Positions 8,629-36,587 of a stretch of DNA of 64,000 bases are shown here, piece by piece (within the stretch, counting starts at the first letter, position 1; the number at the start of each line of letters is the position of its first letter). The DNA lies in the IMG/VR virus record IMGVR_UViG_3300042878_001023, positions 32,001 through 96,000 of that record; one strand, given 5' to 3'. A program made the translations under genes and the position numbers. Source of the stretch: a virus (Duplodnaviria > Caudoviricetes). A model generated the notes under the pieces. It was not told where the DNA came from. It did no database searches and worked only from the letters and a program-made list of their open reading frames with translations.

Positions 8629-11403
8629 TTATAATATAAATGGATAAGTAATATCACCATAAACAAAACCTCCACTTTGCTTTTTACCAAATTGTGCATT
8701 CAATACTTCAAGCTTATTATCTCCAGAACCAGAAGGGCTGTTTTTCAATTTTTCAGACACACATTTTTGAATTGTTGCTTCATCTTTATAACGATTAGAA
8801 CATTCTTTGTAATAATCATCTTCAGTATTTCCTGCAGTTTCAGGTTTGATTTGTCTAGCTTTACTTGGATCAAATTCTACTTTACCACCAACACTAGGAT
8901 CAACTTGCTGTTGTGGATACATTTGATTTAAAGCATCTGTTTTGTACTTATTAGTAATACCAGCATTAGTTTGATTAAGAAGATTATTTTTTAATGCCAT
9001 TTTACTATTATCAAACTGTTGATTAGCAATTGTATTTTGATCATACATTTTACTTTGATTAGCTTGATTAAGAGCAGCCTCTTGATTGTTAATTGCAGTA
9101 CTACTTTGCTCAAACTGATTAGCAATTCCAACATTTGCACTATTATATTTAGCTAATACATCAGCTGCATTTTTAGCACCTTGTCCTTGAATAGATGATG
9201 ATCTAGCAGACAAAGCTTGAGGTCCTGCAAACTGAGCCATTCCAGCAGTTTGAATATTTGCTTGTTCAGCATTAGCAGCAAGTTCTCTAGTAGGATCCAT
9301 AAAAGTAGGTTTTGGTGTTTGTAAATCTACTCTTGGAGCCCCCATTGGAGAATATTTCTTAGCAGAAAATAAATCAATAGCGGCATTACCAATATTTAAT
9401 TTATCTTGTAACCACATTTCAGGTTCTTTCTGTTCTACTTCTTGTTTTATTTCTTCTTGTTCTACTTCTTCTTTTTCTTCTTGTCCTGGTTCTGGATCAC
9501 CTTCTACTACTTCTTCTTTTTTCACTTCTTCTGTTCCAGGAGCTTCTTCAAACTTTCCTTTATCCATATTAGGACTTACACCATGACCTAATGTACTATT
9601 ACCAGCATAACCATCAATAGGTGATAGTGTAGCATATTCATCACCATATAATTTAGCCATCTCAGATTCATCTCCAGCACCTGTATTACTTTCTCTACTT
9701 GCAGCATCTCTACCTAAAAAAGTATCCATTCCGTATGTTGTATCATCATCAAAACTATTATATTCACCTTTTACTTTTTTAGCTTGCATTCTAGCAACAC
9801 CATGTGTTGCAGCTTGTTCTAAAACAGTTTCTTCTTCTGTTGGTAAAGTAATCCCTAAACCTTTAGCAATATCATTTTTATTTGTCCACTTTTTTTGTGT
9901 ATACTCATCTTTTATTTTATCATATTCAGCTTGATCTTTTACAAGATTTCTTTTTTTCAAGTCCTCAAATTTTCCAAAACCTTTAGCACCATTATCAAGA
10001 TAAGCCATATCAATTCCCGATTCTTTAATCTTATCATTTCTTTCTTTTTGTTTGATAAGACTACTTGCAATCTGGTCATCAGTAAAATTTTTCTTATTAT
10101 ATACACCATACTTACCAGCACCTTTTGAACCATAAGCAGCAGAATTCTTTAAAGCTTCTTTTGTTTCTTTAATAAGTTCAGCTCTAATTTTTGAATCTTT
10201 ATTATTAAACTCAGATTTTAAAAAGTCTGTACCTACTTTATTAATAGATTGAAGATCAGCTACAGTTTTTTGTTTTTGTGGATCTGGAGCTTTATAATTC
10301 ATTTTCTTACCACCTTTCATAATAGATGGTTCTTTATCTGGATTTTTTCTTTTCCATGCATAACGTGCTTTATCAGCTTGATTATCATCCATTCCGGTAA
10401 TATCTAATACATCACCAGCTGGACTAGCACCACCTGTAGGACCTGTTGTACTAGGACCTTTATCACCTTGGTATGTTCTTAAAGCACCTCCTCTAGCATA
10501 CATAGGAGATTTAGGTCTTCCCATATAGTTTCTAGGATTAGCTCCCATAGCCATACCATATTCAGCTTCTGGTATATCATCTGAGTAAGGGAAATCAAAA
10601 CCACCAATAAACATACCACCATACTGTTGTTCGGGCATAGCTACTGGTTGACCTTGATTCATTTCTTGAGCTTCATTATCTTGAAATTCAGTATTTGATT
10701 CATCTGTTTCTTCAACATTTTGTTGTTCTGATTGCTCAAGTTTCTGACCAACTTTATTACCAAAGTCTTTTATTTCAGGACTGATAAAAGTTTGTTCATC
10801 TTGTTTATTTTCAGCCATATATGGTTTAGCCACAGCAGGAATACCTTGTGGGAATCCTTTCTGAGATTCTTGTACTAATGCTAAGGCTGCTAATTTTTTA
10901 TTAAAATTACCAATCATTAACTCAGCAGTTCTAACATCAATGTTATCAGAATCCGGATCTTGAAGTATTTTTCTATACTTATCTACATCATATTGCTTTG
11001 CTAACTGAGCGGGAGTATAACTTTTTTTACCTTTAGAGCCTTTACCAAAATGAGACAATAATACAGGATCTTTTACATTCATTCCTCTAAAGTCACTGTA
11101 TATAAAAGTATCATCTGGTAGATTTAATGGTACACCACCACCAGAGTGTCTTGGCCCTTTAATGATTTTGTGTTCTGGTATTCCATCTCCATTGATATCA
11201 CCATATACAGTCTCACCTCCTTCAGCTTCAAGATTAGCTTCTTCTCTAGGAACAGCAGTAAGATATTTACTGATGCGGGTATTAGGTTTACCTATATAAG
11301 CATTATAGTCTGCACCACCCATTGCTGGTACATCATTTGCTAATGAACCTTGTACTTGGTAACCTGTTCTAGCTTGCGGTACTTTTTTAATTCTAACTCT
11401 CAT
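8629..11403 (-). CDS. Putative cargo/ejection protein, C1-like (924 aa)
   Basis: N-terminal EANLEAEGGETV...GPRHSGGGVPL motif typical of Bacteroidetes-phage cargo proteins; Q/N/A-rich coiled-coil C-terminus; several xxxGG motifs. Confidence 0.6.
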   Translation of the reverse strand: MRVRIKKVPQARTGYQVQGSLANDVPAMGGADYNAYIGKPNTRISKYLTAVPREEANLEAEGGETVYGDINGDGIPEHKIIKGPRHSGGGVPLNLPDDTFIYSDFRGMNVKDPVLLSHFGKGSKGKKSYTPAQLAKQYDVDKYRKILQDPDSDNIDVRTAELMIGNFNKKLAALALVQESQKGFPQGIPAVAKPYMAENKQDEQTFISPEIKDFGNKVGQKLEQSEQQNVEETDESNTEFQDNEAQEMNQGQPVAMPEQQYGGMFIGGFDFPYSDDIPEAEYGMAMGANPRNYMGRPKSPMYARGGALRTYQGDKGPSTTGPTGGASPAGDVLDITGMDDNQADKARYAWKRKNPDKEPSIMKGGKKMNYKAPDPQKQKTVADLQSINKVGTDFLKSEFNNKDSKIRAELIKETKEALKNSAAYGSKGAGKYGVYNKKNFTDDQIASSLIKQKERNDKIKESGIDMAYLDNGAKGFGKFEDLKKRNLVKDQAEYDKIKDEYTQKKWTNKNDIAKGLGITLPTEEETVLEQAATHGVARMQAKKVKGEYNSFDDDTTYGMDTFLGRDAASRESNTGAGDESEMAKLYGDEYATLSPIDGYAGNSTLGHGVSPNMDKGKFEEAPGTEEVKKEEVVEGDPEPGQEEKEEVEQEEIKQEVEQKEPEMWLQDKLNIGNAAIDLFSAKKYSPMGAPRVDLQTPKPTFMDPTRELAANAEQANIQTAGMAQFAGPQALSARSSSIQGQGAKNAADVLAKYNSANVGIANQFEQSSTAINNQEAALNQANQSKMYDQNTIANQQFDNSKMALKNNLLNQTNAGITNKYKTDALNQMYPQQQVDPSVGGKVEFDPSKARQIKPETAGNTEDDYYKECSNRYKDEATIQKCVSEKLKNSPSGSGDNKLEVLNAQFGKKQSGGFVYGDITYPFIL

Positions 11404-11412
11404 GTTGTAAGA

Positions 11413-14337
11413 TTATAAATATTCTACTTCACCTCCATTTGCAAGGAATTCTTCTAATTCTTCTTCAGTCATATCAACTTCATCTCCCTCAGTAAATCCT
11501 CCTTCTTGCATATAACCACCTGTTTGCATACCTTCATATTCATTTGGACCAGGTTGAATTGCTTCTAATGTTCTAGGATCAATTCTACCATCTTCAAATG
11601 GTGTAGGTCTTCTTTCATCCATTGGATAATATGATGGATCATTTCTTCTTGGACCACCACTTCCTACAGCATATGGAGTATTATATCTTTCTAAACCATA
11701 AGCTTTATTCATTAAGTCTTGTAATTCTCTGTGTCTATTAGTTTTTGTATATGCACTTTTTTGAGGTACTATTTTTAACCACTCAGAATCATTCATGGCA
11801 CCAATTGCTTCACGGTATTTAGTTTTATCTTCTTCACTATAATCAGCTTCTTCCATTGCATTAAGGAAGGGATCAACATTATCAGTATTTTCTCTTTGCA
11901 TCATTAATTCAAGACCTCTTTTAAACTCAGGAGTATCTGTAAATTCTTTTAGTATTTCTTTTTTAGTATTACCACCTTTTTGCATATAACCACCTTCTTG
12001 ACCATAAGCAAATCTTCCGCTAGTGTCACTACCCATTTGATCATATCTAAACTGACCAACTTGTTGACCATAATCTACATAATCACCTCTGTCTTTTGAG
12101 TTAGAAGCAGCATACATGTTATCAGAAGTAAAATTGTTGTCATACATTTCTTTCTGTTGCTTAGCAGAATCAAGATTGTTTAAGAATCCTGTTACAGCAG
12201 TTGCCCCTACATTAAATTTATTAACAGCATCTTCACCATCAAAGTTACTAGGAGCTCTTTGTTTATCAACTGCAATTATATCATCATTTTTTGGATCACC
12301 AAAATCTTCAGAAGTAATTGTTTGACCCTTAGTTTGATTAGGATCCATCTGTACTGTTTTAACTTTACCAGCATCAGGATTAACAGGAGCTGAAGGTGCA
12401 CCTGGAAATGATTGTGTAGCTCCCATAAAACTATTTGGATTTGAAGCAGGCTTTAACATACCTGATAAATCACCAGTGTTAGTAGTTGGATCAGAAGGTT
12501 TTTTAACCGGAGGTCCTGTTTGTGCTTTTGGTAAACCACCATATCTAAATGCATTTTTTTGATTTTTAAAATCAGACTGCTCTTTATTTTCTATATATTC
12601 TTGTAAATTTTCAAATTCTTGAGCTTTAGATTTACCAGGTTTAAATTGAAAAGTTTGAGGTAACATAGGTTCCTCTAATTCATCAGCTCCGTATTCTTCT
12701 TCTGTATCTAGTATATTTTGCATCTTATTACCATGAAATTTTAGAAAATCTTTCATGCTACCTGAATTTTTTATTAACTCTGAATCTGCTTGATCTCTTT
12801 CATTCATTACAGATGCATTCTCAAAATCTATTGGTGTAATCAGATCCTTATACTTAAATTTATCCACTACTGTTGGTAATTCAGCTTTATCTAAATCACT
12901 ATATGCAGGACCATAAACTTTATCAAAAATATTTACTGGATCCCAACGGTATTCTCCATTTCCAAGATCTCTTTTTTTAGTAATGATGTCTTTGTATGGT
13001 ACACCTTCATAATCTATATCAGACACAAAAGATTTATCTTTATCCCAAGCATCATCACTTCTTTTTTGATCTCTTGCTAAATCTTCTGGATTTTCATACT
13101 TATATTCAGCATGAACACCTTTGTTAAATGCAGCATCTTCTTTCATTGAGTCAGCACCTCTTCTAGCTTCTCTACCTAATTGTCTTTCTCCTCTTCTAAT
13201 TTCTCTTTTTGCTTTACCAGGTAAAGTATCCCAAACATCTTTTTCAACACCATGCTTTAGAGATTTATCTTCTGCCATTTGTTTTTCATAAGCAGCTTTA
13301 ATTTCTTGACCAGATGTTAATGGTTTACTAGAACCAGAACCTTTAGAATAATATTCAGTCCACTGTTTAGGTCTTCCTAATAATCCTCTTTTGTGAACTG
13401 TTTTAGCATATGGATTTAATCCTTCAAAAGAATCTTTGTATTCTTCTTTTGTTTTTGCATTATATGCTTTACTAGATATAATACCTCTTTTTGCTTCTGG
13501 TAACATATCAGCTTCATAGAATGGTATATCTGTTCCACCATACATGAACATTTCTGGTTGTTTATCACCACCAACTAGACCACCTGACTGTGCTTCTTGA
13601 AATGTACCCGTAGGCGGTTTATTTCTTTGCTCTGCAATTTTCTGAGCACCTTGGATTAATTCAGGATTATTAGAACCCATCATTTTTTTATAAAGCTCAT
13701 CAACAGCTGCTTTATCAGCAATCTCTTTTATTTTAGAAACAAATTCAGATTTTTTAGAAACATCTCCATTGATTGTATCAAACCTTTCTCCTTTACCAGG
13801 TTCTTTTTCAGCTCCTCCTTCTTGCTTTTTAAGTAAGCTTAATACATTTTTAGTAAAGTTTTTCTTAGATGTTTTACCACCATACTGGTATTCCATATTA
13901 GGATTGTAATCTTCTTCTTCATCCGCATATGAATTATAGTAATCTAATCCTTGATCAGATTCTTCTTCAACAGGTACTTCTTCTTGAGACATTTCTTGCT
14001 GTGGTTCAGTACCTTCTTCTGTAACCCCATTTTCTTTTTGTTCAGCAGCAGCTTCTTCCTCTTCAATTTCAGAATTAATTTCTTCCAATAAATAAGAAGC
14101 TATATCTTTTCTTATACCCTTACTTACAAGAACTTTATATATATCCTGATCATCAATATCTTCAGATTTTAAACCTTTTATGTAAAGCTTAACATTCTCA
14201 AGTTGTTCTTGGACATCATCTTGACTACCAGATACCTCCATACCTCCTTGAGCTTTTTCTAAAAACTGCTTTGTTTTATTTATGTATTTACCTTCTCCAT
14301 CATGAGATTTGTAAATTCTAACTTTTCTTTTTTCCAT
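11413..14337 (-). CDS. Putative internal/cargo protein, low-complexity, multiple xQxGG motifs (974 aa)
   Basis: Acidic and disordered-looking; about 10 [MFYAK][QR]xGG-type motifs; C-terminal EVDMTEEELEEFLANGGEVEYL module. Confidence 0.55.
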   Translation of the reverse strand: MEKRKVRIYKSHDGEGKYINKTKQFLEKAQGGMEVSGSQDDVQEQLENVKLYIKGLKSEDIDDQDIYKVLVSKGIRKDIASYLLEEINSEIEEEEAAAEQKENGVTEEGTEPQQEMSQEEVPVEEESDQGLDYYNSYADEEEDYNPNMEYQYGGKTSKKNFTKNVLSLLKKQEGGAEKEPGKGERFDTINGDVSKKSEFVSKIKEIADKAAVDELYKKMMGSNNPELIQGAQKIAEQRNKPPTGTFQEAQSGGLVGGDKQPEMFMYGGTDIPFYEADMLPEAKRGIISSKAYNAKTKEEYKDSFEGLNPYAKTVHKRGLLGRPKQWTEYYSKGSGSSKPLTSGQEIKAAYEKQMAEDKSLKHGVEKDVWDTLPGKAKREIRRGERQLGREARRGADSMKEDAAFNKGVHAEYKYENPEDLARDQKRSDDAWDKDKSFVSDIDYEGVPYKDIITKKRDLGNGEYRWDPVNIFDKVYGPAYSDLDKAELPTVVDKFKYKDLITPIDFENASVMNERDQADSELIKNSGSMKDFLKFHGNKMQNILDTEEEYGADELEEPMLPQTFQFKPGKSKAQEFENLQEYIENKEQSDFKNQKNAFRYGGLPKAQTGPPVKKPSDPTTNTGDLSGMLKPASNPNSFMGATQSFPGAPSAPVNPDAGKVKTVQMDPNQTKGQTITSEDFGDPKNDDIIAVDKQRAPSNFDGEDAVNKFNVGATAVTGFLNNLDSAKQQKEMYDNNFTSDNMYAASNSKDRGDYVDYGQQVGQFRYDQMGSDTSGRFAYGQEGGYMQKGGNTKKEILKEFTDTPEFKRGLELMMQRENTDNVDPFLNAMEEADYSEEDKTKYREAIGAMNDSEWLKIVPQKSAYTKTNRHRELQDLMNKAYGLERYNTPYAVGSGGPRRNDPSYYPMDERRPTPFEDGRIDPRTLEAIQPGPNEYEGMQTGGYMQEGGFTEGDEVDMTEEELEEFLANGGEVEYL

Positions 14338-14394: not shown

Positions 14395-16185
14395 TTATTG
14401 TTCTTCTACAATGTATCCTTGATTTATATAATCTTGAATCTCATCATCTGATAATTCTAATTCAACTTCTCCACCTGATTCAAAAAATCTACTTTTAGGT
14501 TTCATTATGTAATCATGACCCCCAAGTTCATTTTTTACTTTTCCAATTTTTCTTAAATTTAAATCTGTACCAATAAGTTCTCTTTCTTGTAAAACAAGTT
14601 CGGGTAAGCTTTTATAAGAAGATCTCAAGTCTTCAGGTATTTTATTTAAAACTTCATCAGAATAATCTGTATAATGCTCATTTTTTATAAAATTTTTACC
14701 AGCTTTTTTTGCATTTTTTCCACTAAGAACAATTCTATCTTTTGGTCCATTATAATCTGCACCTCTACCTGCAGAAAATGAAACAGGTCTATCACCAAAA
14801 TTTATAGTTTTGTTTTTTAAATTAAATAGTTTTGGATCTTCAGCATTTATTTTTCTTATTAATACTGTATCGTCAGGCATATCAACACCTGTTTTTTTTA
14901 TCAAATTATTTAGTTTAGATCTTAATACCTCGTCTACATTACCCCATCTACCTGTATATGGAGATGAGTCAAATGCATAATCTCTAATCATAGCATGTTG
15001 CCATTCTGTAAGTGGTTTTTTATTTTTTATAGCATTATATATATCTTGTGCTTGATCTGATGTTACACCTTGTGCTCGGCTTTTCCAAGCATAAGGTAGT
15101 ATAGTTTCACCATGAGCAACTTTATCAGCAACATCATCAACATATTTATAAGCATCTTTTACTTTATTACCTGTACCAAAACCTGAAAAGTTAAGTGCAT
15201 TTAAGGTGTTTTCATATAATGCATTTGCTACATTATCCGCTGTTGGCTTTTTATAAGCTTTCTTAGTTGCCTTTCTTACATCACTGTTTGGGTCAATATA
15301 GTCATTAACACCCATGACACCTCCTGCTGCGGTAAGAAAGTTTCCAAGATTAGCTCCTGGAGCCCATGATGGAGCAGCCGCCATCATTGTTTTGAAACCT
15401 TGTTTTACTAATGGAGCAGCAGCTTTTACTCCCTTTACAGTACCTGGTAGTAAAGCAGCTTCTGTAAAAAATTCATCTGCATAATTACCAGCACCTTGTG
15501 GTTTAGAATATAGATTTTTTGTTTGGTCTGTTGCCCAAGAGTCTTTCTTAGGATCAAAAGTCTTATTAAAAACTTTACCGTCTTTACCTATAACTTTTGT
15601 ATATACAGTACCATCTTCTTTCTGAACCTTAATAGTTTTGTTACCTTTTTTATCAGTGTGTTCTTTAGTAGATATTATTCCTTTCTGAGCTTGATTAAGT
15701 TCTGGTACAGATATATCTTCTACTATGTAACCACCTTTTCTGTATTCTTCTATTTCATCATCTGTAAGTTCTGCTTCTACATATTCACCACCATCTTGAT
15801 AATAATCTACAGTTGGATCATATACTCTATTCTTGTAATTCTCAAACAATGGATATTTAAGGAATAACTTATTAGTACCAGATAAGCTTTTAGTTTTTTT
15901 CTTAGCTCCTCCTTTTCTCATTTGTGGATATTCATCAACATAATCTGCTCCAGGAAAAGTGTAGTCTGCTCCGGGAAGCATTATCTTTCTTTGACCATTA
16001 TTGGCTACACCTAATACAGGATAACCTACTCCTTTCATAGTAATATCATTACTAGGAATTCTAGTTGGTAATCCAGGATATTTCCACTGACCCATTGGAT
16101 CATTGATCATATCTTTAGGTTTCTTAGGTGCTTTAGCTTTGTCCAACTCAGCTGAAGCTTTAGATAGAGCTTTTTTATTATACAT
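14395..16185 (-). CDS. Putative cargo protein with C-terminal ADP-ribosyltransferase-like (R-S-E) domain (596 aa)
   Basis: LTEWQHAMIRDY..., VLIRKI (Arg), PVSFSAG (Ser), LQERELI (ExE) in the order of VIP2/Alt-type ARTs; two copies of EL[TS]DDEIxxYxxxGYIVE. Confidence 0.55.
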   Translation of the reverse strand: MYNKKALSKASAELDKAKAPKKPKDMINDPMGQWKYPGLPTRIPSNDITMKGVGYPVLGVANNGQRKIMLPGADYTFPGADYVDEYPQMRKGGAKKKTKSLSGTNKLFLKYPLFENYKNRVYDPTVDYYQDGGEYVEAELTDDEIEEYRKGGYIVEDISVPELNQAQKGIISTKEHTDKKGNKTIKVQKEDGTVYTKVIGKDGKVFNKTFDPKKDSWATDQTKNLYSKPQGAGNYADEFFTEAALLPGTVKGVKAAAPLVKQGFKTMMAAAPSWAPGANLGNFLTAAGGVMGVNDYIDPNSDVRKATKKAYKKPTADNVANALYENTLNALNFSGFGTGNKVKDAYKYVDDVADKVAHGETILPYAWKSRAQGVTSDQAQDIYNAIKNKKPLTEWQHAMIRDYAFDSSPYTGRWGNVDEVLRSKLNNLIKKTGVDMPDDTVLIRKINAEDPKLFNLKNKTINFGDRPVSFSAGRGADYNGPKDRIVLSGKNAKKAGKNFIKNEHYTDYSDEVLNKIPEDLRSSYKSLPELVLQERELIGTDLNLRKIGKVKNELGGHDYIMKPKSRFFESGGEVELELSDDEIQDYINQGYIVEEQ

Positions 16186-19100
16186 TATCTTAGAGAAGTT
16201 TCATTTTTACTATTACTGATTTTCAAAATAATATTAGTATTACCAGATTTATTTTTCTTTAAGTTAACAAAACTCATGTAATGTCTAAACTTTTTTCTTT
16301 GTAATTCTGGTTTGGAATAATCTAAATTATTAAAATTAAGTGTTCTTCTAAAACCATCTGGTTCAGTAATCCATGTAGTTTCACCAGCATAGTTACCAAT
16401 CAATACTGTTGTATCAGGTATAACTTGTCCTATTGGAGGATATGATCCACCTAATGGGAACTCACCTCTGTTGTTAGTAATATCCCAAAACTGATTAAAT
16501 CTATATTTATTCTCTTCTTTTGAAAATAGTATATCAAAAGAATTATTATTTAGATTTAATTTTGGATACTGTCTAGCTAATATTAAATCATTTTTAGGAT
16601 ACAAATTTAAGTTTAAATATCCGGATACTTGTTCTGAGTTATACACAACAGCTGTATCAAAGTTAAAATCTAGCACATGATGTGAATCCACACAGTTATC
16701 AGATTTTCTATAAGCCTCCATTATATACTCAATAGATCTTGTAGTAGTAATAGTTTGACCTGACACAATTGGAATATCTATTTCACATGCGTAGTCTACA
16801 CCATAGTACTTACAATAAGAATCACATAACCAGTTATGTCTCCAACCACCTGCACCTTTTGTAGATATAAATACATCTTTAGTAGGTAATAATAAATCTG
16901 GATGCCAGTCATGAAAACTAATCCAGAATTGACTTTTAGGGTCATAACTAATTGTCCAGGAAGCATCTCTAAATATAGTAGTGTCACCTAATCTATATTG
17001 AACTGCCTGATTGTTATCTACTATAAAGTAATCTCCTGTACCATCAGATTTTAAGGGCACATAAGTTGTTCTTCTTTTGAATGAATCTATTAACTGATAA
17101 TCCTTCTTACAGAAGTATAATATAGTGTTAGTATTATCAAATACAGATTGACATCCAATACCAGCTACTGGGTTATCTTGATAAGGATATAAAGGAAAGT
17201 CTACTGTTAGTTTGTACGGTAGGAAAAGTGTGAACCACCATTTCATCCCCTGTTGAGATAATTCTTGAAGTCCTTGACCATATGAGAATATTTTACCAGC
17301 TGCTTGAGATATATAGAATATACCTACTGGTGTTGATATCACAGACAATCTATTTTGAGAAGCACCATATTCATATGCTTTATCAGAATTTGCTACAGCT
17401 TGACCAGGTTGACTAAATAATCCTCCGTCCCCAATAGTAACTTTTGTTCCTAAATCAGTATTAAGTGTATCCACACCTTGGAACATCACAGGGCTATCAT
17501 TCTTAAAAGTGATCATAATACCTGATTTGTTTATAGGTTTTACTCCACTAATTTGAGATTTAAATGTTCTATAGTTATTTATTAAATATACAAACCAGCT
17601 ATCTTTAATTGCTTCATCTTGTTGTGGTAATGAATAAATGATTCTATTAGGGTAGTATGTATAACATAACTCAGACACATTTGGATTATAATATCTACTC
17701 TGCATAGATCCTAATGAGAAATACTGGTTGTATAATTTAGAAACACTTAATGAATAGTCATATTGGTAAAAAGAATTCTTACCCATGATCTCTGGATTCA
17801 TATCAAACATCTCTTGGTAATTAGTATATCTGTAAGGATCATAAAACTTATTACCAATGTTATCTGCTTGCTTTCTAAAGTCTAGTAATACTTCTGACTC
17901 AACAAAGAAGTCTCTTATTGAAGAAGCTGCTAAGTAAAAGTAAGAATCTTTACATATAAAAAACCCAGGATAATTAGATGCGGTATCAGTTACATAATCA
18001 TATTTTTTAGTAGTACCTTCAAAGTAATCTAAATTATAAAAGTTAGAAGGTAAAGGACCTGTACCAGGAGTTTGAGCATTATCAGCAAAGTTAGCAAAAT
18101 CTGTAAACAAACTTGCCAGATTACTTGAATCATATAATTGACTGTTTAATCTAAACCTTGGATGAGGAATCATACTTTTTAAATAGTAATTATATTCAAA
18201 ACCATCAGGCTGACTATATAACCAATCAAAAAAGAATAACATGTTATTTTTTTCTGTGTATCTATTTACATAAGTATCTCCTCCAAAAAATATTGGTGTT
18301 CTAGGAATTACAAATCTTTTTTTACTAACAGAATTACAAGTTACAGCTGTTATTTCTTGAACATTAGATACACTAAGTTTTTGTTCACAATTAGAAATTG
18401 TAATTTGTTTAATAGAATCTAACTGTCCATATTGATTTCTAACTCTACCTTTAAGAGCTCCGTAGTGACTTGCAATTGGTAAACTAAAAGGATCATCTGT
18501 ATCATTCATACCAAAATTTGGAACAGAAGGATTTCTAATTTGTTTTAATGTACCTAATGTAACTAATGATTCATCAATGTTTAAAAGCTTAGGACCTACA
18601 TTTTGATTAGCACCATTTTTAACTCTTAATGTAACTGTAGCTGGTCTTTTTAAATTATTGATACTATAAGATCTGTAAGTATTAGTATTATCAAGATACT
18701 TACTCATTTGTTGAATATTATCTCTTAAATAAAAAGCATCATCAATAGTAAATCTTTTAGTATCTGTATTTCCTACAGGTTGCATTTGAGAATAAAAACC
18801 ATAAGCTTTCATTTGAAGAGCAAATGGTTTATAAGATGTTACAGCATATAATATTTTAAGAGCAATGTCTACACCTTGAGAAAAGTATGTTGCAATATTT
18901 TGACCCGCTGCTAGTATTCTAAGAGGTCCTGGTAAATAATTTGTTTTAGCAATTTCTGTATGTAATTCAGGGGCTGTATACACGGCTCCTTTTTGTGTTA
19001 AATTAGTAGTAGCTGATGTTTGATATGCAGTACCTAATACATCAACTAATCCTGCTGTAGCCAAATCAGCTAAGGCACCTGTTGTTGCATTATAAGTGGT

Positions 19101-21623
19101 GACTGCTGTTTGTAAAGCAGCAACATTACTAATTACTGCATTTTTACTTAAATCAGTATACTCATCTTCTTTTGTTGATATATCTCCTCCAGTTAAAGGT
19201 TTACCCACAATAGGTTGATGATTAACATTAACATTATAAATAGCAGCACTACCTGCACCATTTATACTTTCTTGACCTGATGAACCACCACTAATATCAC
19301 CACCTCCAATTTCTTTACCTGTTATATCCGGCCCTACTAAACTTTGAAATGCAGGACCTGCTTGCACTGTTGTTCTTTTACCGACACCTGCTATTATAGC
19401 TTCTGCAAGACCAAATATTATCATTACAAAAACTGTGGCATCTGAAAGTAATTTAAACTTAGGATGATCTGATGGAGTAACAAATTGTTGATTTGATAAA
19501 CCTTGTAAATGACCATATATTTTAAACTCAGGAGTAGATAAGAACGGAGTTCTAAACATTGTATCCGGTGAGTGAAAACTAATAATATCACTAGGTACAG
19601 TAGCTACAAGCCCGGCTTTAATAAATGGATCTGACTGACCTGCAACATTACCACCTAATGCTGAACTTATAGGAGTAATTGTATTAAACGGGTAATTAGC
19701 ATAAAGACCTGTGTAATTATTATTACCGGAAATTTTATAAGTTCTATAGTTATTAACCATCCCTTTAGCAACAATAGTCTTGTTACCCTCTCTAGATCCT
19801 CTAAGTATTTCATAGCCTGCAATTCCTGGTATATCATTACCATCATTATCTTTTGGTAGCTGTATGTTTGTAAAAAATACACCCATTAATCTTATGAAAT
19901 AATCATTACCTACATTAGTTTGTGGTGTAGGATTACTTCTAAATCTAATTACATCAGCTGTGTTGCTACCATTAATAAAATCTTCAGGAAATTTATGATG
20001 TCTAATATTTTTACCACACAAATCAAAAGAATTATCCGTAGCTCCTGTCCAACATAAACTACTTGGATTCCATATTTCTGGTCTATTATCAGGATAACTT
20101 TCTGTTGATTGCCAGTATCCCATGTCTCCTGTTGCTATAACAGTTCCCCCATCATCAGTAGTAGTACCAATATAAGAATTGTTATTATCAGCTGTAGCAG
20201 TGTTATATATTTCAAATACTCTTTCATCTGTAGTTAAAGTATTTGTATCTCCGTTTAATGTAGATGTTTCTTTAAATATTACTCCTGTTGTAGGAAGAGT
20301 AAAGTCTCTAGGTGCTCTTCCCGGAATATGGTATGAAGATGTTTTGTCTCCAGTGTTGTAAACCCATCTAATAAAAAATGAATATACTTCATCTCTCATA
20401 TAGTTAGTTTTGTTACCACCTTTCATATAATAGTTAGCAGGATATTCTACAGAAGCCCACTTAGTTGTAATCATATTAGCCAAAGGCTGGTAATTAAAAT
20501 CAAATTTAGATTTAGGACCCACTCTTAGTAAGTAAGTATTTAACTCTGCAATCTGATCACTACTTTCAAATACCGGAGTTCTTAATGGTAATTGTTCTAA
20601 TGGGATTGTAATATTAGAAGGATCAATTTGATCAAAAGATAATGCTGAAGTATTTGTTGAATAAACACCCATTCTTTTAGCAACAGTTTGTTGATTAGTA
20701 CAACTTACTATTACTAACTCAAACTCATCAAAGTTTAATCTATCAGCTTCAATTTCTAAATCTAAAGATCCTTCAAGATCATCAGGAGAATATACAAACT
20801 GATAATTACTTTGTGAAAAATAATCTGTAACCTTCTGACCATTTATTAAATAAGCAATTACTACAAAGTAACTACCATTAGCTAGTGTACCACCTGTTTG
20901 TCCTAACTTTAATCTAAGACATGGTGTAGTCATCAGTCTAGCTAATCTTATTCTTTCACAATCAAGAGTATTAACATTTTCACATATGTTACAGTCATTA
21001 ATGATCTTACATGTTTCATTCCATTGCACACCTGGCCAAAGTGATTTTGTACTAGTTCCTAGTAGAGAATAGTAATTAGCCATAACTCCTGTTGCCCCAC
21101 CAAATATATGATTATCTAATGATGGCCAAGTTTTAGAATTTCCAATATTTAAAAACCTATCAGGGTTTAATCCATCAGCCCAATATATTTGCCAAGTACA
21201 GTCTTCTCTTTCTCTAGAAGTACCTGATATTAAGTATCTCTTGTCAAACTTTAAACAAGGATCAATTACAATTGGTCTGTAAACACAGTTCTCTTCTTCA
21301 AATAATCCTATTTCAGAATTAATTGGTTGACATAGTGAATTATGACCTGCTGTAAGAATGACCCATTTATCGGAGTATAGATAGATTGCTCCAATTACAT
21401 ATTTTTCTTTAACCTGTGGTGGAAAAAATTTACCGGATTCAAAACAAATATAATTGGCAGACTCATTAGATAATGAACCTACTCTACCTGTCTTAGAATT
21501 GTTGACCATGTTTATAGCATGCGTCCACATTCCTTCAGTTACATAAGAAGGATCAGAATCTTTGTTCAGACCCTTTATGAAACTGTCAGTAATATTCTGA
21601 GAAGTATCTTGCATGTTTGACAT
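16185..21623 (-). CDS. Tail muzzle / stabilization protein (P22 gp10-like position), 1812 aa
   Basis: N-terminal SFIKGLNKDSDP, internal YMRDEVYSFFIRW and FGGDTYVNRY, C-terminal WTISYDP...WISFHDWHP; lies between ring genes and cargo genes as in crAss-like phages. Confidence 0.75.
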   Translation of the reverse strand: MSNMQDTSQNITDSFIKGLNKDSDPSYVTEGMWTHAINMVNNSKTGRVGSLSNESANYICFESGKFFPPQVKEKYVIGAIYLYSDKWVILTAGHNSLCQPINSEIGLFEEENCVYRPIVIDPCLKFDKRYLISGTSREREDCTWQIYWADGLNPDRFLNIGNSKTWPSLDNHIFGGATGVMANYYSLLGTSTKSLWPGVQWNETCKIINDCNICENVNTLDCERIRLARLMTTPCLRLKLGQTGGTLANGSYFVVIAYLINGQKVTDYFSQSNYQFVYSPDDLEGSLDLEIEADRLNFDEFELVIVSCTNQQTVAKRMGVYSTNTSALSFDQIDPSNITIPLEQLPLRTPVFESSDQIAELNTYLLRVGPKSKFDFNYQPLANMITTKWASVEYPANYYMKGGNKTNYMRDEVYSFFIRWVYNTGDKTSSYHIPGRAPRDFTLPTTGVIFKETSTLNGDTNTLTTDERVFEIYNTATADNNNSYIGTTTDDGGTVIATGDMGYWQSTESYPDNRPEIWNPSSLCWTGATDNSFDLCGKNIRHHKFPEDFINGSNTADVIRFRSNPTPQTNVGNDYFIRLMGVFFTNIQLPKDNDGNDIPGIAGYEILRGSREGNKTIVAKGMVNNYRTYKISGNNNYTGLYANYPFNTITPISSALGGNVAGQSDPFIKAGLVATVPSDIISFHSPDTMFRTPFLSTPEFKIYGHLQGLSNQQFVTPSDHPKFKLLSDATVFVMIIFGLAEAIIAGVGKRTTVQAGPAFQSLVGPDITGKEIGGGDISGGSSGQESINGAGSAAIYNVNVNHQPIVGKPLTGGDISTKEDEYTDLSKNAVISNVAALQTAVTTYNATTGALADLATAGLVDVLGTAYQTSATTNLTQKGAVYTAPELHTEIAKTNYLPGPLRILAAGQNIATYFSQGVDIALKILYAVTSYKPFALQMKAYGFYSQMQPVGNTDTKRFTIDDAFYLRDNIQQMSKYLDNTNTYRSYSINNLKRPATVTLRVKNGANQNVGPKLLNIDESLVTLGTLKQIRNPSVPNFGMNDTDDPFSLPIASHYGALKGRVRNQYGQLDSIKQITISNCEQKLSVSNVQEITAVTCNSVSKKRFVIPRTPIFFGGDTYVNRYTEKNNMLFFFDWLYSQPDGFEYNYYLKSMIPHPRFRLNSQLYDSSNLASLFTDFANFADNAQTPGTGPLPSNFYNLDYFEGTTKKYDYVTDTASNYPGFFICKDSYFYLAASSIRDFFVESEVLLDFRKQADNIGNKFYDPYRYTNYQEMFDMNPEIMGKNSFYQYDYSLSVSKLYNQYFSLGSMQSRYYNPNVSELCYTYYPNRIIYSLPQQDEAIKDSWFVYLINNYRTFKSQISGVKPINKSGIMITFKNDSPVMFQGVDTLNTDLGTKVTIGDGGLFSQPGQAVANSDKAYEYGASQNRLSVISTPVGIFYISQAAGKIFSYGQGLQELSQQGMKWWFTLFLPYKLTVDFPLYPYQDNPVAGIGCQSVFDNTNTILYFCKKDYQLIDSFKRRTTYVPLKSDGTGDYFIVDNNQAVQYRLGDTTIFRDASWTISYDPKSQFWISFHDWHPDLLLPTKDVFISTKGAGGWRHNWLCDSYCKYYGVDYACEIDIPIVSGQTITTTRSIEYIMEAYRKSDNCVDSHHVLDFNFDTAVVYNSEQVSGYLNLNLYPKNDLILARQYPKLNLNNNSFDILFSKEENKYRFNQFWDITNNRGEFPLGGSYPPIGQVIPDTTVLIGNYAGETTWITEPDGFRRTLNFNNLDYSKPELQRKKFRHYMSFVNLKKNKSGNTNIILKISNSKNETSLR

Positions 21624-21624
21624 A

Positions 21625-23926: not shown

Positions 23927-23955
23927 AATAATATAGTAAAAATTAGTTAGTTTAA

Positions 23956-23964
23956 CAAATATAG
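23956..23964 (-). promoter_or_regulatory. Putative promoter -7 element CTATATTTG
   Basis: Matches Bacteroidetes TAnnTTTG; lies just downstream of a terminator and ~30 nt upstream of ATG 23926. Confidence 0.5.
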
Positions 23965-23968
23965 CTAT

Positions 23969-23996
23969 AAAACAAAACCCCTACAAGTGCAGGGGT
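23969..23996 (-). terminator. Rho-independent terminator
   Basis: Minus strand ACCCCTGCA-CT-TGTAGGGGT followed by TTTGTTTT. Confidence 0.75.
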
Positions 23997-24033
23997 ATGT
24001 CTAGTTGAAGATAAACCAACAAACTGCAACTAA

Positions 24034-24600: not shown

Positions 24601-24605
24601 AACAA

Positions 24606-26252: not shown

Positions 26253-26282
26253 AATATATTATCTTAATTGTAAACTAACTGG

Positions 26283-27134: not shown

Positions 27135-27142
27135 TTTTTATT

Positions 27143-27766
27143 TTAATTATGTTCTGGTTCATATTGACAATCTTCTTCATCAATAACAACAGTATAAAAG
27201 AAATCATGACTACAACCAAAAGCATCTATTACTTCAATTCTTATAGTACCAGAATATTTATTTGTATTATTATCACCAATATAAAATTTATTAGGTAAAC
27301 AATATACAACAACATAGAAACCCATACCTCCTTGTCCTACAGGATTAAAACAATCAGAACTTGTACCTTCTTCATAACTTGAACAATTAGAAATTGTAAT
27401 ACCAGTAAATGGTCCTTGTACTACCGAAGGTTTTATTGTATACGTTGGTGTACCCCCTGTAATAGCAAAACCCAATGATGAACCTACATATACACCACCT
27501 GTTAGAAAATTAAACTCAATATCTATTTCACAATTTTTATTACAGATTGTATCTACAAGTGTTGTTAATACAGTAGGTAATGATTCTCCTGATTCCACAA
27601 GCACCTCACCATTACAAACTATTGGATCTCCTGTATAGTTAACACAATCAAGATCAAATATCTGTTCACAGTCTGGTGCAGGTGGACAGTTTCCACCATA
27701 CTCACAAGGAGTAGGTGGAATAACCACCTTCTTTTTGCATTTACAATTTTTACAATTTTTTTTCAT
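27143..27766 (-). CDS. Cys-rich tail fibre/appendage protein (207 aa)
   Basis: Same N-terminal Cys module; GGTPTYT...VIDAFGC. Confidence 0.55.
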   Translation of the reverse strand: MKKNCKNCKCKKKVVIPPTPCEYGGNCPPAPDCEQIFDLDCVNYTGDPIVCNGEVLVESGESLPTVLTTLVDTICNKNCEIDIEFNFLTGGVYVGSSLGFAITGGTPTYTIKPSVVQGPFTGITISNCSSYEEGTSSDCFNPVGQGGMGFYVVVYCLPNKFYIGDNNTNKYSGTIRIEVIDAFGCSHDFFYTVVIDEEDCQYEPEHN

Positions 27767-27786
27767 TTAACACATTGTATTTATTA

Positions 27787-29859: not shown

Positions 29860-29876
29860 AATTAATACTAGTTAAT

Positions 29877-29885
29877 ATAATATAC
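29877..29885 (-). promoter_or_regulatory. Putative late promoter GTATATTAT
   Basis: Recurring motif, 17 nt upstream of ATG 29859. Confidence 0.55.
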
Positions 29886-29897
29886 AAAATAATATTG

Positions 29898-32287: not shown

Positions 32288-32295
32288 ATGCTATA

Positions 32296-33947: not shown

Positions 33948-33981
33948 TTTTGTTTTGTTTTAGTTAATAAATAAATACTAT

Positions 33982-33990: not shown

Positions 33991-34013
33991 TGAAAGATTT
34001 TATAAAATCAAAA

Positions 34014-34466
34014 TTATTTCAAGAAAAGTAATTTATATTTTGCAGAATTCATTGTAGACTTGATTGTATCAAGATCATTAACAATTTCTGAGTATGGCAT
34101 TTTGTCTTGTAACTTACATACCATATCACACATATCTTTTAAATAATCTATAGCATCAGCAACTGTATCCAACTTTCTTGGAGCAACTTCTGCATAGGAT
34201 AATAATTTTTCATGAGCACCTTGGAAACTTTCTGCTAAATCATCAGCATGTCCAGGTAATGCATCATATAAATCATTCAATGCTTTATGTGCAGCATATG
34301 AACCTGTACCTGTTATTTTTAAATGTAACTTATGAATACTTGTAGAAGCATTCATTAATTCACTTACACAGGCTGCTGTAAGAGATTCTATGTTTCCTCC
34401 AGCTGGAGCAGAAGCATATTCACCATTTGATTTTGTAGCCATTGGCCTTTTTAACATTCTTTGCAT
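34014..34466 (-). CDS. Dps/ferritin-like protein
   Basis: IHKLHLKITGTGSYAAHKALNDLYDALPGHADDLAE matches the Dps H...H..LD.LY......D..AE ferroxidase helix pattern. Confidence 0.75.
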   Translation of the reverse strand: MQRMLKRPMATKSNGEYASAPAGGNIESLTAACVSELMNASTSIHKLHLKITGTGSYAAHKALNDLYDALPGHADDLAESFQGAHEKLLSYAEVAPRKLDTVADAIDYLKDMCDMVCKLQDKMPYSEIVNDLDTIKSTMNSAKYKLLFLK

Positions 34467-34468
34467 GA

Positions 34469-35167: not shown

Positions 35168-35173
35168 TACATT

Positions 35174-35509
35174 TTATTTTAATGATCTATGTTTTTTAGT
35201 TCCTCCATAAATACCTGCAACAGCAGCAGCTGTACCAACAGCAATACCAGTAGCTTTAGCTTTATTGGATATCTTAACTTTTTCAGGATTTTTTATAGCT
35301 GTGGTTGTTGCAGCAGCACCTTTATCAGAAACTGGTTTACCAGCAGATGCCCAATCTGAAAAAGATTTTTTAACAGTACTTGTAGGCTTACTAGCTTTGT
35401 AAGTAGTTTTAGCAGCTTTCATTCCTTCATTAATACTTTTAGCACCTCTTACAACAGTTTTGATAGCTTTACCCATCATTGCTTTTGGAAGTTCTTTTTT
35501 CTTTGCCAT
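35174..35509 (-). CDS. Small Lys/Ala-rich protein with C-terminal hydrophobic segment
   Basis: 111 aa; LPKAMMG motif; GIAVGTAAAVAGIYGG. Confidence 0.6.
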   Translation of the reverse strand: MAKKKELPKAMMGKAIKTVVRGAKSINEGMKAAKTTYKASKPTSTVKKSFSDWASAGKPVSDKGAAATTTAIKNPEKVKISNKAKATGIAVGTAAAVAGIYGGTKKHRSLK

Positions 35510-35511
35510 AA

Positions 35512-35670
35512 TTATTTCTTTTTTGCCATTGCTTTAAAAGTCTTAGCTAACTGTTTAGCTTTACCTGTACAACCAGGTTTAGTTATAGGGGTACATTTAC
35601 CTTTTGTACCCCTTTTCTTAATATCAGCTGTAGCTTTTTGAATCCAGTTTTTATCTTTTTTCTCAGCCAT
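35512..35670 (-). CDS. Small basic protein (52 aa), not in ORF track
   Basis: Hand translation MAEKKDKNWIQKATADIKKRGTKGKCTPITKPGCTGKAKQLAKTFKAMAKKK; fills the gap with 2-nt spacing on both sides. Confidence 0.75.
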   Translation of the reverse strand: MAEKKDKNWIQKATADIKKRGTKGKCTPITKPGCTGKAKQLAKTFKAMAKKK

Positions 35671-35672
35671 TA

Positions 35673-36065
35673 TTAGCATTTCTTTTTAGTAGCACCACCC
35701 ATTTTCTTTTTGCTCATTTTAGCACCAGCTATTCTATCTGCTGCAGTAGCTTTAGGATTTTTGTCTACACCAGCTTTAACTGATAACATACCAAAAGATG
35801 AACCACCTTTTTTAAAGCTTGGTCTTTCAGATACACATCCACCAGTAGCAGATCTAACTGTACCTGGAGGGCAAGAATGTTTAACAGCGGTTAGTTTAGA
35901 ACCACCTTTTTTCATAGACTCCATACCTTGTAAATTAGGTCCTGTTGCACCTGCATTAGGGATTCCATATATTTGTCCTTTTGGTGTAGCAGAACCAACA
36001 GTAGTTTTCATTGTAGAACCACCTTTTTGCATCTTAGTTCCACCACATTTCATACACTTTGCCAT
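35673..36065 (-). CDS. Small basic protein with repeated xKxGG motifs (130 aa)
   Basis: MQKGG, MKKGG, FKKGG, KKMGG; N-terminal CMKC. Confidence 0.7.
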   Translation of the reverse strand: MAKCMKCGGTKMQKGGSTMKTTVGSATPKGQIYGIPNAGATGPNLQGMESMKKGGSKLTAVKHSCPPGTVRSATGGCVSERPSFKKGGSSFGMLSVKAGVDKNPKATAADRIAGAKMSKKKMGGATKKKC

Positions 36066-36077
36066 ATTATATAAGTT

Positions 36078-36587
36078 TTAACAATTCCATTTTTTTAAAG
36101 CTAATGCTTTTCTTGTAGGTTTTCCCTTCTCATCTTTCATAGGTCCATCAACCCCTGACATTCTAGCACAAAAACTTTTTCTTCTCTTAGCATCTTTACT
36201 ATCTGGATCAAGCTTTGATGGCTTAGTAGTCACAGCCATTTTAAGTTTGCTTCCTGGATTTTCTTTTCTGTAGGAAGCAACTCCTTTAGCATTAAGACCA
36301 CCCGCTGGATTCTTTCCCTCCTTGCGTGTCCATGCAGCTGTACTACCTCCTGTTTTCATTTTAGGCATTTTGTCATTTTGCTTATGCCAATCTTTTTCAG
36401 CCTTAACTCCTTGCTTTACAGTTTTAGCATTTGCAGTTCTAGTCAAACTAATAGTATCATAGGTTCCTTTATTTTTGGTAAGATGGTTCACCATAATGTC
36501 ACCAACTTTACCTTCACCTTTTTTAGTACTTTTTTTATATACTACATGTTTTTCATTACCCGTAGTAAGTTTAACCTTAGCTGCCAT
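36078..36587 (-). CDS. Basic protein with C-terminal DUF6321-like domain (169 aa)
   Basis: AWTRKEGKNPAGGLNAKG...RRKSFCARMSG...ALKKWNC, a widespread phage domain, joined to an N-terminal domain through MKTGG. Confidence 0.7.
   Translation of the reverse strand: MAAKVKLTTGNEKHVVYKKSTKKGEGKVGDIMVNHLTKNKGTYDTISLTRTANAKTVKQGVKAEKDWHKQNDKMPKMKTGGSTAAWTRKEGKNPAGGLNAKGVASYRKENPGSKLKMAVTTKPSKLDPDSKDAKRRKSFCARMSGVDGPMKDEKGKPTRKALALKKWNC

Follow-up and report, generated by a model that had tools for sequence, protein, structure and literature searches.

A conserved short peptide ending in Gly-Gly at the module joints of putative cargo proteins of a marine crAss-like phage

The subject of this analysis is a stretch of 64,000 nucleotides of viral DNA (hereafter the window), comprising bases 32001-96000 of the 121,857-bp IMG/VR virus record IMGVR_UViG_3300042878_001023, which CheckV rates as complete, and a peptide of five residues that recurs in several proteins encoded there. 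The sequence-only reading of the window had described the pattern [MFYAK]-[QKR]-x-G-G as a candidate maturation-cleavage or packaging signal of internal (cargo) proteins; here it is called the looser pattern, and its stricter version, [MFY][QKR]xGG, the strict tag. The motif is real, conserved, restricted to a few protein families and located in disordered joints, at which modules are swapped between relatives.

The source phage is crAss-like, because the window encodes a crass-type capsid protein, a muzzle protein and two ring proteins detected with Pfam (Crass_capsid, E 7.4e-28; crAss_MUZ, E 1.8e-21; CrAss_Ring_1, E 3.8e-8; CrAss_Ring_2, E 2.3e-21), together with a portal protein and a large terminase recognised by PHROGs. 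The G+C content is about 31%, and the structural genes are all on the minus strand. Downstream of the muzzle gene lie open reading frames (ORFs) of 596, 974, 924 and 1027 amino acids (aa), followed by three giants of 2430, 3428 and 1977 aa that run beyond the window. In crAss001, the genes past the muzzle gene encode the cargo proteins gp45 and gp46 and then the RNA-polymerase-associated gp47, gp49 and gp50, all of which have been detected in virions (PMC10172136). Judging from the position of the muzzle gene, therefore, the three genes downstream of it are positional equivalents of those for gp45/gp46; two of the giants match gp47 and gp50, and the third weakly matches gp49 (E 1.4e-4). The second locus of interest, beside the capsid gene, is a cluster of small proteins with isoelectric points (pI) of 9.3-11.6 located between a 338-aa gene and a gene for a 232-aa structural protein. 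The features concerned are the following (window coordinates, with nucleotide positions of motifs in parentheses).

16185..21623, minus strand: muzzle protein (Pfam crAss_MUZ), nearly tag-free in relatives
14395..16185, minus strand: 596-aa protein of a polyvalent cargo family, first gene past the muzzle gene; strict tags MRKGG (15907-15921), YQDGG (15787-15801) and YRKGG (15730-15744); loose tag FESGG (14470-14484), then a 24-aa C-terminal beta-alpha-beta-like end piece (14398-14469)
11413..14337, minus strand: 974-aa protein in cargo position, mostly disordered as predicted by AlphaFold2; strict tags YQYGG (13876-13890), FRYGG (12535-12549), MQKGG (11971-11985), MQTGG (11515-11529) and MQEGG (11497-11511); LPKAQTG (12514-12534) directly after FRYGG; conserved 27-aa C-terminal piece (11416-11496)
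8629..11403, minus strand: 924-aa protein in cargo position; conserved 200-aa N-terminal domain starting with VPQARTG (PQARTG at 11362-11379); further motifs IPEAEYG, loose tags QQYGG and YARGG, and KQSGG (8668-8682), 12 aa before the C-terminus
38587..40206, minus strand: major capsid protein (Pfam Crass_capsid), adjoining the small basic cluster
37299..37475, minus strand: 58-aa basic protein (pI 11.6), tag decayed to FTTGK
36590..36742, minus strand: 50-aa basic protein, no tag here, 4 tags in 26 relatives
36078..36587, minus strand: 169-aa basic protein; 76-aa N-terminal extension, MKTGG (36345-36359), DUF6321 from residue 91
35673..36065, minus strand: 130-aa basic protein (pI 10.3), C-terminus ATKKKC; MKCGG (36039-36053), MQKGG (36018-36032), MKKGG (35901-35915), FKKGG (35802-35816) and KKMGG (35694-35708)
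35512..35679, minus strand: 55-aa basic protein, no tag here, 8 tags in 18 relatives
35174..35509, minus strand: 111-aa basic protein with the second motif as LPKAMMG at residues 7-13

The counts for this genome refer to our own ORF call (133 ORFs, 38,796 aa; ATG starts, at least 50 aa, greedy removal of overlaps). All peptides listed by the sequence-only reading are present in the ORFs to which it assigned them, at nucleotide positions confirmed by translation, and its figure of about 20 copies is reproduced by 20 matches to the looser pattern, 17 of them in the five proteins that it named; the remaining three all begin with A (AKSGG, AKAGG and ARAGG). The dipeptide GG itself is not enriched (183 occurrences in the 133 ORFs), and its highest count, 13 in the 974-aa protein against 7.5 in shuffled sequences, is reached by 28 of 1000 shuffles. 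The strict tag occurs 13 times in the whole proteome, all copies lying within four proteins: five in the 974-aa protein (shuffle mean 0.18), three in the 596-aa protein (0.09) and four in the 130-aa protein (0.07), none of these three counts being reached in 1000 shuffles, and one in the 169-aa protein, a count reached by 28 of 1000. As proposed, the motif ties together two loci (8.6-16.2 kb and 35.2-37.5 kb). The 924-aa protein, which had been counted among the carriers, holds loose forms, one of them matching the looser pattern, and no strict copy. The related pattern P[KEQ]AxxG has seven matches in the genome, five of which are in the 924-, 974- and 111-aa proteins. The tag is not a universal cargo mark, because the three giants, two of which match gp47 and gp50, and the 1027-aa protein carry no strict copy.

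The distribution of the tag among relatives was determined in 119 loci: 65 that surround a relative of the 974-aa gene (minimum ORF length 60 aa, ORFs cut by a locus end or containing X being dropped) and 54 that surround a relative of the 130-aa gene (minimum ORF length 50 aa); some contigs are present in both sets, and the related sequences are not independent. Each ORF was assigned to a family by its best BLASTP hit (E<=1e-5) to the proteome of this genome. The resulting counts of strict tags are as follows.

974-aa family: 162 tags, 62 proteins (59 tagged), 72,398 aa
596-aa family: 178 tags, 55 proteins (52 tagged), 59,451 aa
924-aa family: 53 tags, 57 proteins (40 tagged), 48,434 aa
130-aa family: 148 tags, 56 proteins, 8,060 aa
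58-aa family: 46 tags, 29 proteins
169-aa family: 14 tags, 49 proteins
Muzzle family: 7 tags, 51 proteins, 67,160 aa
1027-aa family: 0 tags, 50 proteins, 50,663 aa
Ring proteins: 0 tags, 29 proteins, 7,711 aa
Capsid: 0 tags, 17,535 aa
Portal: 0 tags, 27,350 aa
424-aa scaffold-like protein: 0 tags, 13,494 aa
338-aa protein: 0 tags, 12,518 aa
Terminase: 0 tags, 11,480 aa

Pooled over the cargo families, 613 strict tags were found in 200,806 aa, compared with 33.6 expected from composition (18-fold), and in 307,390 aa of the other assigned homologous proteins there were 12, compared with 22.0 expected (0.5-fold); unassigned ORFs, mostly small and basic, contained 65 where 7.5 are expected. The rarity of the motif in portal, ring, muzzle and fibre proteins, asserted from the window alone, is borne out by these family counts. 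All 65 homologues of the 974-aa protein (query included; down to 25% identity) have one to seven strict copies, where shuffles predict 0.06-0.37 each, and, whether 17 or all 65 sequences are aligned, the glycines of the tag stay invariant or almost so amid gapped and variable flanks. The 130-aa protein has 1100 homologues at E<=0.001; among the 120 listed, 119 have at least one tag and 57 have four. Together with the shuffle controls, this conservation supports the view that the motif is a selected signal and not an artefact of Gly content: what is non-random is the context, GG alone showing no enrichment. Codons at the tag are used as in the background (GGT for the second Gly, 0.59 vs 0.61; CAA for Gln, 0.86 vs 0.84), and therefore selection acts on the protein and not on a DNA seam. 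The second motif, as [LIVM]P[KEQ]AxxG, is just as confined, with 75 copies among the 924-aa proteins (52 of 57 have it), 35 among the 974-aa proteins, seven among the 596-aa proteins, one among muzzle proteins and none among the 1027-aa proteins.

The lineage is an abundant marine crAss-like phage. Its capsid protein has 3144 relatives (90%-identity clusters) at E<=1e-10, with 2060 member sequences in a single cluster and a Tara (ocean survey) source label on one relative. By capsid protein, the nearest cultured phages are distant (Leptolyngbya phage Lbo-JY46, 28% identity; Cellulophaga phages phi17:2 and phi4:1, 25%). Given that the capsid is 85-92% identical in the 120 listed of the 3144 relatives and 81-100% identical in 24 relatives recovered from the related loci (at least 89% in 23 of the 24), and that the 974-aa family in the same lineage extends down to 25% identity, the evolutionary rates of proteins within one particle differ very strongly. 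Beyond the lineage, Lbo-JY46 (34 coding sequences examined) has FQTGG and FQQGG in the second gene past a muzzle-sized gene, LPKAQIG at residue 8 of the third, and one more strict match, YKTGG, in a 631-aa protein near the capsid gene. No strict tag was found in the 29 crAss001 proteins examined, gp45 and gp46 included, or in the DUF6321 proteins of two non-crass phages examined, and a search of phage records with the 974-aa protein gave no match. A spread of the tag over unrelated phage lineages was considered for five records without a crass capsid gene near the basic cluster and was rejected: two of these have such a gene elsewhere, and three are fragments that are 30-39% complete.

The peptide consists of M/F/Y, Q/K/R, any residue, Gly and Gly, usually followed by an aromatic or small residue and then by I/V/T. 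Ahead of GG, the most informative places are -3 (M/F/Y) and -2 (Q/K/R, also A). After GG, aromatics are enriched 3.5-fold at the first place in the large proteins, followed by I/V/T/P (I/V 3-4-fold), and Gly is found at the second place in none of 290 contexts; in the small basic proteins, S/M/A at the first place are followed by T/V/I. Of 425 unique contexts, 16 have Pro immediately after GG, a share little under background. In the AlphaFold2 model of the 974-aa protein (65-row alignment), 601 of the 974 residues have a predicted local distance difference test (pLDDT) value below 50, and four of the five strict tags are in such stretches; the last 25 residues (950-974) form a confident strand-helix-strand piece. 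The C-terminus of the 596-aa protein has a similar arrangement (GG, strand, acidic helix, GG or QG, strand), which is found within the protein as well; some of the GG pairs are therefore structural, being part of a folded beta-alpha-beta end piece. The distance from the last tag to the C-terminus recurs within families: 27-28 aa in 18 of 51 members of the 974-aa family, 23-26 aa in 10 of 45 members of the 596-aa family and 8-14 aa in 13 of 29 members of the 924-aa family. At the other end of the chain, the tag is within the first 12 residues in 33 unique ORFs.

The relation between tags and modules is best seen in the 596-aa family, whose members range from 363 to 2789 aa. Among the 27 relatives scanned, 13 have Pfam matches (SET, SLT, Phage_lysozyme, VanY, Amidase_2, GNAT, ART-PolyVal, PG_binding_1), eight of them to at least two different domains; this family consists of polyvalent proteins in the sense of Iyer et al. 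(2017), that is, chains of several enzymes. The window's own copy has no Pfam match and no similarity to the ART-PolyVal domain of a relative; its association with ADPrib_exo_Tox clusters in the ESM Atlas (0.85 and 0.83) makes an ADP-ribosyltransferase only a lead. None of the 61 tags in the 13 Pfam-matched relatives falls inside a Pfam stretch, where about five would be expected by chance (such stretches are 8.8% of residues). The tags bracket the domains, as in the order YKSGG337, SLT, MKYGG593, VanY, MKKGG809, end piece, and SLT and VanY domains follow a tag at a distance of 20-35 aa. Relatives begin with one of two unrelated modules, either an 85-aa domain or SET, and the exchange falls exactly before [MF][RK]KGG, near residue 89. 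SET is present in seven of the 27 scanned relatives; this lysine methyltransferase-like domain replaces the N-terminal domain in 6 of 32 aligned relatives (L026, L028, L041, L064, L066, L024), as confirmed by Pfam in the four of these that were scanned (L024, L026, L028, L041). The middle domain of the window's 596-aa protein sits at residue 171, 366, 616 or 738 in different relatives, and in BLAST comparison with a relative that has another payload, only the joint pieces match. The placement of the motif between modules, suggested from the window, thus agrees with the mapping of Pfam domains, which puts the tags at module edges.

In the 924-aa protein, the conserved part is the N-terminal domain (residues 1-200), which has 76% mean column identity in 12 sequences and an invariant GPRH..GGVP..LPDD block. 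The ESM Atlas offers a lead from this protein to crAss_CARG1 (0.94, 191 shared features). No sequence match of the domain to crAss001 gp45 was found: neither the 924-aa protein nor the 12 N-terminal domains of its family have a Pfam match to crAss_CARG1 (PF25725), and hhalign with gp45 gave a probability of 0.09%. Searches of PDB sequences with the 596-, 924-, 2430-, 3428- and 1977-aa proteins returned only a polynucleotide-kinase domain and LysM. By analogy, the tagged proteins are probably packaged in the particle and injected, because they are syntenic with crAss001 gp45/gp46, which follow the muzzle gene and are found in virions by mass spectrometry. The reading of the motif as a mark of putative cargo is in line with this position and with the small basic cluster beside the capsid gene.

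The densest tagging, up to 18 per 1000 aa, is found in that cluster. The 169-aa protein belongs to DUF6321 (Pfam PF19846 at residues 91-167, E 2.2e-24, 86.3 bits vs a cut-off of 28.5), and tblastn with it gave matches in 538 phage records that start near residue 84, just past the tag; the DUF6321 records are mostly marine cyanophages and pelagiphages, and in HTVC119P the gene is located between the scaffold and capsid genes. The 130- and 169-aa proteins both end in a basic stretch with Cys (ATKKKC, KKWNC), and unrelated marine phages keep the terminal W-x-C in their DUF6321 proteins. Of the 29 relatives of the 58-aa protein, 15 have the core as the C-terminal module of a longer tagged basic protein (unique ones 68-320 aa) with up to about 10 tags of the KKYQDGG/MKTGG type, the core coming directly after the last tag; in the window, the core stands alone with nothing upstream, and the tag reads FTTGK. 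A complex prediction for the capsid protein and the 130-aa protein scored 0.00 against a mark of 0.32, without controls, and speaks neither for nor against binding. In other contigs, a 338-aa phrog_4417 protein is encoded ahead of the basic cluster, and the 338-aa protein of the window was considered as its counterpart; the two are unrelated and their equal length is coincidental.

Proteases were sought with Pfam and PHROG scans of 91 ORFs, covering the ORFs of the genome of about 100 aa or more. The statement that no protease is recognisable in the window is borne out. Of the two kinds that had been named as candidates for the rest of the genome, C48/Ulp-like enzymes were not found (PF02902 has no match in the genome at E<=10, and the Pfam scans detected none of the peptidase families C5, C48, C57 and C63), and zincin-type HExxH motifs were found outside the window. 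No gp21-like or other prohead protease was detected in the 91 ORFs. HExxH occurs in five proteins of the genome, namely a DUF2201_N + VWA protein, proteins of 133 and 147 aa, the 1977-aa giant (residue 211) and the 3428-aa giant (residue 751); it is absent from the 596-, 974- and 924-aa proteins, and no MPTase match was found in 27 relatives of the 596-aa protein. At E<=10, Pfam gave nothing relevant for four HExxH regions. The two proteins of most interest are given in genome coordinates.

19904-30190, minus strand, just upstream of the window: 3428-aa giant with a YHEAWH zincin-like domain at about residues 700-810
1597-4095, plus strand, outside the window: DUF2201_N putative metallopeptidase + VWA protein (Pfam), adjoining a MoxR-type AAA ATPase in the replication block

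The HExxH segment of the 3428-aa protein aligns to crAss001 gp47, where the motif is YHEAFH, and a search at E<=0.001 gives 586 relatives of the domain, of which almost all are giants; the consensus of 150 listed of the 586 matches keeps DlYHEAWHgFsQ and a downstream EE.lAEdFR. This sequence pattern fits a zincin and makes the domain a candidate protease. An AlphaFold2 model of the region (13-row alignment) is all-helical with a mean pLDDT of 62; the best hit of a VIA wide search with it has a Z of 4.2 and is confined to the last 50 residues. Profile searching against PDB sequences gave one unrelated match (E 0.023), and hhalign with the HELVH region of the N4 virion polymerase aligned 14 columns (probability 0.33%). 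The same giant has a polynucleotide-kinase-like P-loop domain at residues 3080-3230 (AAA_33, E 1.8e-16; PDB 4jst, E 1.2e-4). The DUF2201_N protein is present in four of four near-complete relatives and absent from crAss001; as a partner of the tag it was set aside, being encoded in the replication block beside the MoxR-type ATPase and showing a co-occurrence that is not independent of kinship. The PHROGs label of this protein, 'HNH endonuclease', is probably wrong.

Several other features of the genome were recorded. The large terminase (window 45073-48348, minus strand, 1091 aa) contains what looks like an intein: a LAGLIDADG_3 domain (E 1.3e-10) is inserted in it, and Hint matches weakly (E 5.8e-4), the 20.4 bits lying below the cut-off of 32.1. 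A homing-endonuclease-like ORF (phrog_314; window 41613-42332, minus strand) is located between the portal and scaffold-like genes, and there are further GIY-YIG/NUMOD endonucleases elsewhere in the genome. A 150-aa protein annotated as DUF5856 / 'starvation-inducible regulator' (Dps-like) is encoded in the middle of the structural block (window 34014-34466, minus strand). Outside the window, a 301-aa protein (genome 105744-106649, plus strand) combines a sigma-70 region-4-like segment with an RNA polymerase alpha C-terminal domain. Matches to SprB repeats, below the cut-off, and Fib_succ_major in tail-side proteins (window 24606-27134, minus strand; L005:4739-5308, plus strand) hint at a Bacteroidota host.

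Our favored interpretation, to which we tentatively assign a probability of roughly 0.4, is by analogy with the capsid-targeting sequence and gp21 site of phage T4: the tag would be an address-and-cut signal at the N-terminal edge of each module of the internal proteins. What we infer beyond the observed distribution is recognition by a partner, cutting of the chain and the identity of the enzyme. Within the particle under assembly, a single partner encoded by the phage would recognise the tag and would also cut the chain after Gly-Gly. The cut would separate the conserved handles (N-terminal domains and 11-27-aa C-terminal end pieces) from the payloads, split polyvalent proteins into single enzymes (peptidoglycan hydrolases for the periplasm; SET, ART or GNAT for the cytoplasm) and reduce the basic multi-tag proteins to small DNA-associated peptides. 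The enzyme might be the conserved HExxH domain of the 3428-aa giant or the DUF2201_N zincin. Cutting is suggested, at the level of sequence, by the restriction of the tag to cargo families, its conservation amid divergence, the predicted disorder around it and its position at module edges, and further by the arrangement in which each module has its own tag and conserved handles flank variable payloads. The tag decays to FTTGK where the 58-aa module has nothing upstream to remove. Furthermore, enzymes that act in the periplasm and in the cytoplasm are joined in one chain, which is the argument of Iyer et al. for processing (PMC5512222), and T4 offers, by analogy, the precedent of a targeting peptide removed by gp21. 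The conserved HExxH domain supplies a candidate enzyme, and the background-like codon use points to selection on the protein.

Several observations weigh against address-and-cut. Cutting of tagged chains is hypothetical in this clade, the Pfam and PHROG scans detect no protease family among the structural genes, and the giant cargo proteins carry no tag. Foldseek comparison of the HExxH model with the PDB gave nothing at E<=0.001 (best 0.46, to sigma factors); since neither fold nor profile comparisons produced a match, the peptidase fold of this domain is unconfirmed, and crAss001 has the same HExxH motif yet no tag. Residues are preferred after GG as well as before it, which is more like a two-sided structural or binding element, and some tags are in tandem, 6 aa apart. 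Some GG pairs are an integral part of the small beta-alpha-beta end piece, and cutting there would disrupt its fold. GG followed by 0-2 residues forms the C-terminus of 29 of 1285 unique proteins, and no member of a cargo family is among the 29; therefore, gene fission has never mimicked the proposed cut. Finally, where a free-standing gene has its tag at the N-terminus, a cut would release nothing. A more specific variant, which we regard as unlikely, is that a protease travels in the particle, with the YHEAWH domain of the 3428-aa protein as the candidate and the tag as its cutting code; it would dissect the polyvalent cargo and chop the multi-tag basic proteins into DNA-condensing peptides. 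If this were true, a particle-borne protease would amount to an adenovirus-like core maturation system in a tailed phage, and any tagged protein could be read from sequence as an injected effector.

The same observations can be accommodated without cutting, and an uncut docking tag or a passive hinge comes close to the favored interpretation in likelihood. The tag might be an uncut docking or packaging element that binds a procapsid component (capsid interior, scaffold, portal, rings, or the beta-alpha-beta end pieces of other cargo), with additional copies adding avidity; it would then resemble encapsulin cargo-loading peptides or the gp45 segments located on the crAss001 portal and rings. 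Conservation and confinement to cargo families, the residue preferences on both sides of GG, the tandem copies, the tags at the ends of conserved handles and those at the N-termini of free-standing small genes, as well as the lack of cargo ORFs ending at GG, are all compatible with docking, and pieces of crAss001 cargo protein 1 bind portal and ring proteins (PMC10172136). Nevertheless, we consider it somewhat less likely than cutting: a tag that is missing from the giants and the 1027-aa protein cannot be a general entry ticket, its decay would leave the free-standing 58-aa protein without one, the receptor is hypothetical, and one tag per chain should suffice, yet every joint keeps its own under selection. 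Alternatively, the tag could be a passive, partner-free joint, an intrinsic Gly-Gly hinge or cap with hydrophobic flanks that closes one module and starts the next strand, and that is kept because thread-like, floppy cargo must fold module by module and pass the tail channel. Hydrophobic residues at -3 and +1, beta-branched ones at +2 where Gly never occurs, the GG within the confident beta-alpha-beta end piece, and the presence of the tag in interdomain linkers and in acidic and basic contexts alike are what such a joint should display. It leaves unexplained, however, why Q/K/R are preferred at -2, why other multi-domain virion proteins of these phages (muzzle, fibres, giants) are almost devoid of the tag, why small proteins have it at their very N-terminus and why its density in the basic proteins is so extreme; we consider it slightly less likely than docking.

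Exchange of modules exactly at the joints, the same payload at different positions and the BLAST matches between relatives with different payloads that are confined to joint pieces could also mean that the joint is kept mainly as a recombination seam for module exchange between phages. The background-like codon use reveals no conservation at the DNA level, 15 bases are short for homologous exchange, and residues that stay invariant down to 25% identity are rarely the product of selection for evolvability alone, all of which makes this explanation very unlikely. Chance, or a by-product of Gly- and Lys-rich composition, has in its favor that GG itself is not enriched; it has been refuted by the shuffles, which never reach the counts in three proteins, by the 18-fold and 0.5-fold ratios in cargo families and elsewhere, and by the conservation of aligned tag positions, and its probability is negligible.

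If the tag is a module mark, sequence alone would suffice to list the injected effectors of uncultured crAss-like phages, and the predicted processing of polyvalent proteins would become testable at defined sites; if it is an uncut joint, it still defines exchange points for host-attack domains. The motif is apparently new to the literature: searches with the tag strings and for proteolysis and Gly-Gly in phage cargo yielded no description of it, the tag strings being in no phage paper among the matches listed, and a search for Lbo-JY46 found no paper.

Peptides ending in Gly-Gly are the recognition sites of the clan CE proteases (adenovirus protease, pS273R of African swine fever virus, Ulp-type enzymes) in core or internal proteins, including small basic DNA-associated ones. 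The parallel with the adenovirus and African swine fever virus enzymes, which had been drawn from the window, does not hold in detail: unlike in (M/L/I)xGG, the hydrophobic residue is one place further from GG, that is, fifth and not fourth before the presumed cut, M/F/Y are preferred over L/I, and the genome encodes no recognisable clan CE (C48 or adenain-like) or other cysteine protease family. Encapsulin cargo-loading peptides are likewise short, contain Gly, are located in disordered ends of the cargo and address it inside an HK97-fold shell; their sequence is different, and the tags described here are mostly internal and multiple, with binding being hypothetical.

Among phages, the crAss001 cargo proteins C1 (gp45) and C2 (gp46) are large, present in virions and have pieces bound to portal and rings, with only short C1 segments resolved (Bayfield et al., 2023; PMC10172136). 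The tagged genes share with them the place directly past the muzzle gene; they differ in having no Pfam or hhalign match to them, the sole link being that of the ESM Atlas to crAss_CARG1, and gp45/gp46 are without the strict tag. Polyvalent proteins are predicted to be delivered with the DNA and processed by zincin-like peptidases, and about 36% of them contain an embedded peptidase of this kind (MPTase) that is predicted to process the chain (Iyer et al., 2017; PMC5512222). Relatives of the 596-aa protein similarly string several enzyme domains in one chain; in contrast, the tagged proteins have no embedded HExxH peptidase, and the tag also marks small single-module basic proteins. In the available part of that paper, no junction or cleavage motif is named, and the words 'linker' and 'glycine' do not occur (PMC5512222).

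The closest known system is the capsid-targeting sequence of T4 together with the sites (L/I-x-E) of the prohead protease gp21, along with phiKZ gp175 and SPN3US gp245. In T4, internal proteins reach the head by means of ten N-terminal residues that gp21 subsequently removes, and the packaged ADP-ribosyltransferase Alt, which has the peptide at both ends, is trimmed at both termini (PMC9026906). Here, as in T4, a very short peptide is common to many internal proteins (putatively internal in the present phage) and is N-terminal on small basic ones, and the internal proteins vary between related phages while the head genes are conserved (PMC9026906). Unlike in T4, the tag ends in Gly-Gly and not in Glu, no gp21-like protease family was found in the genome, tags are also located inside long multi-domain chains and in tandem, and targeting and cutting are presumed. 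As with the T4 targeting sequence, the tag could serve as a handle for loading foreign proteins into such capsids.

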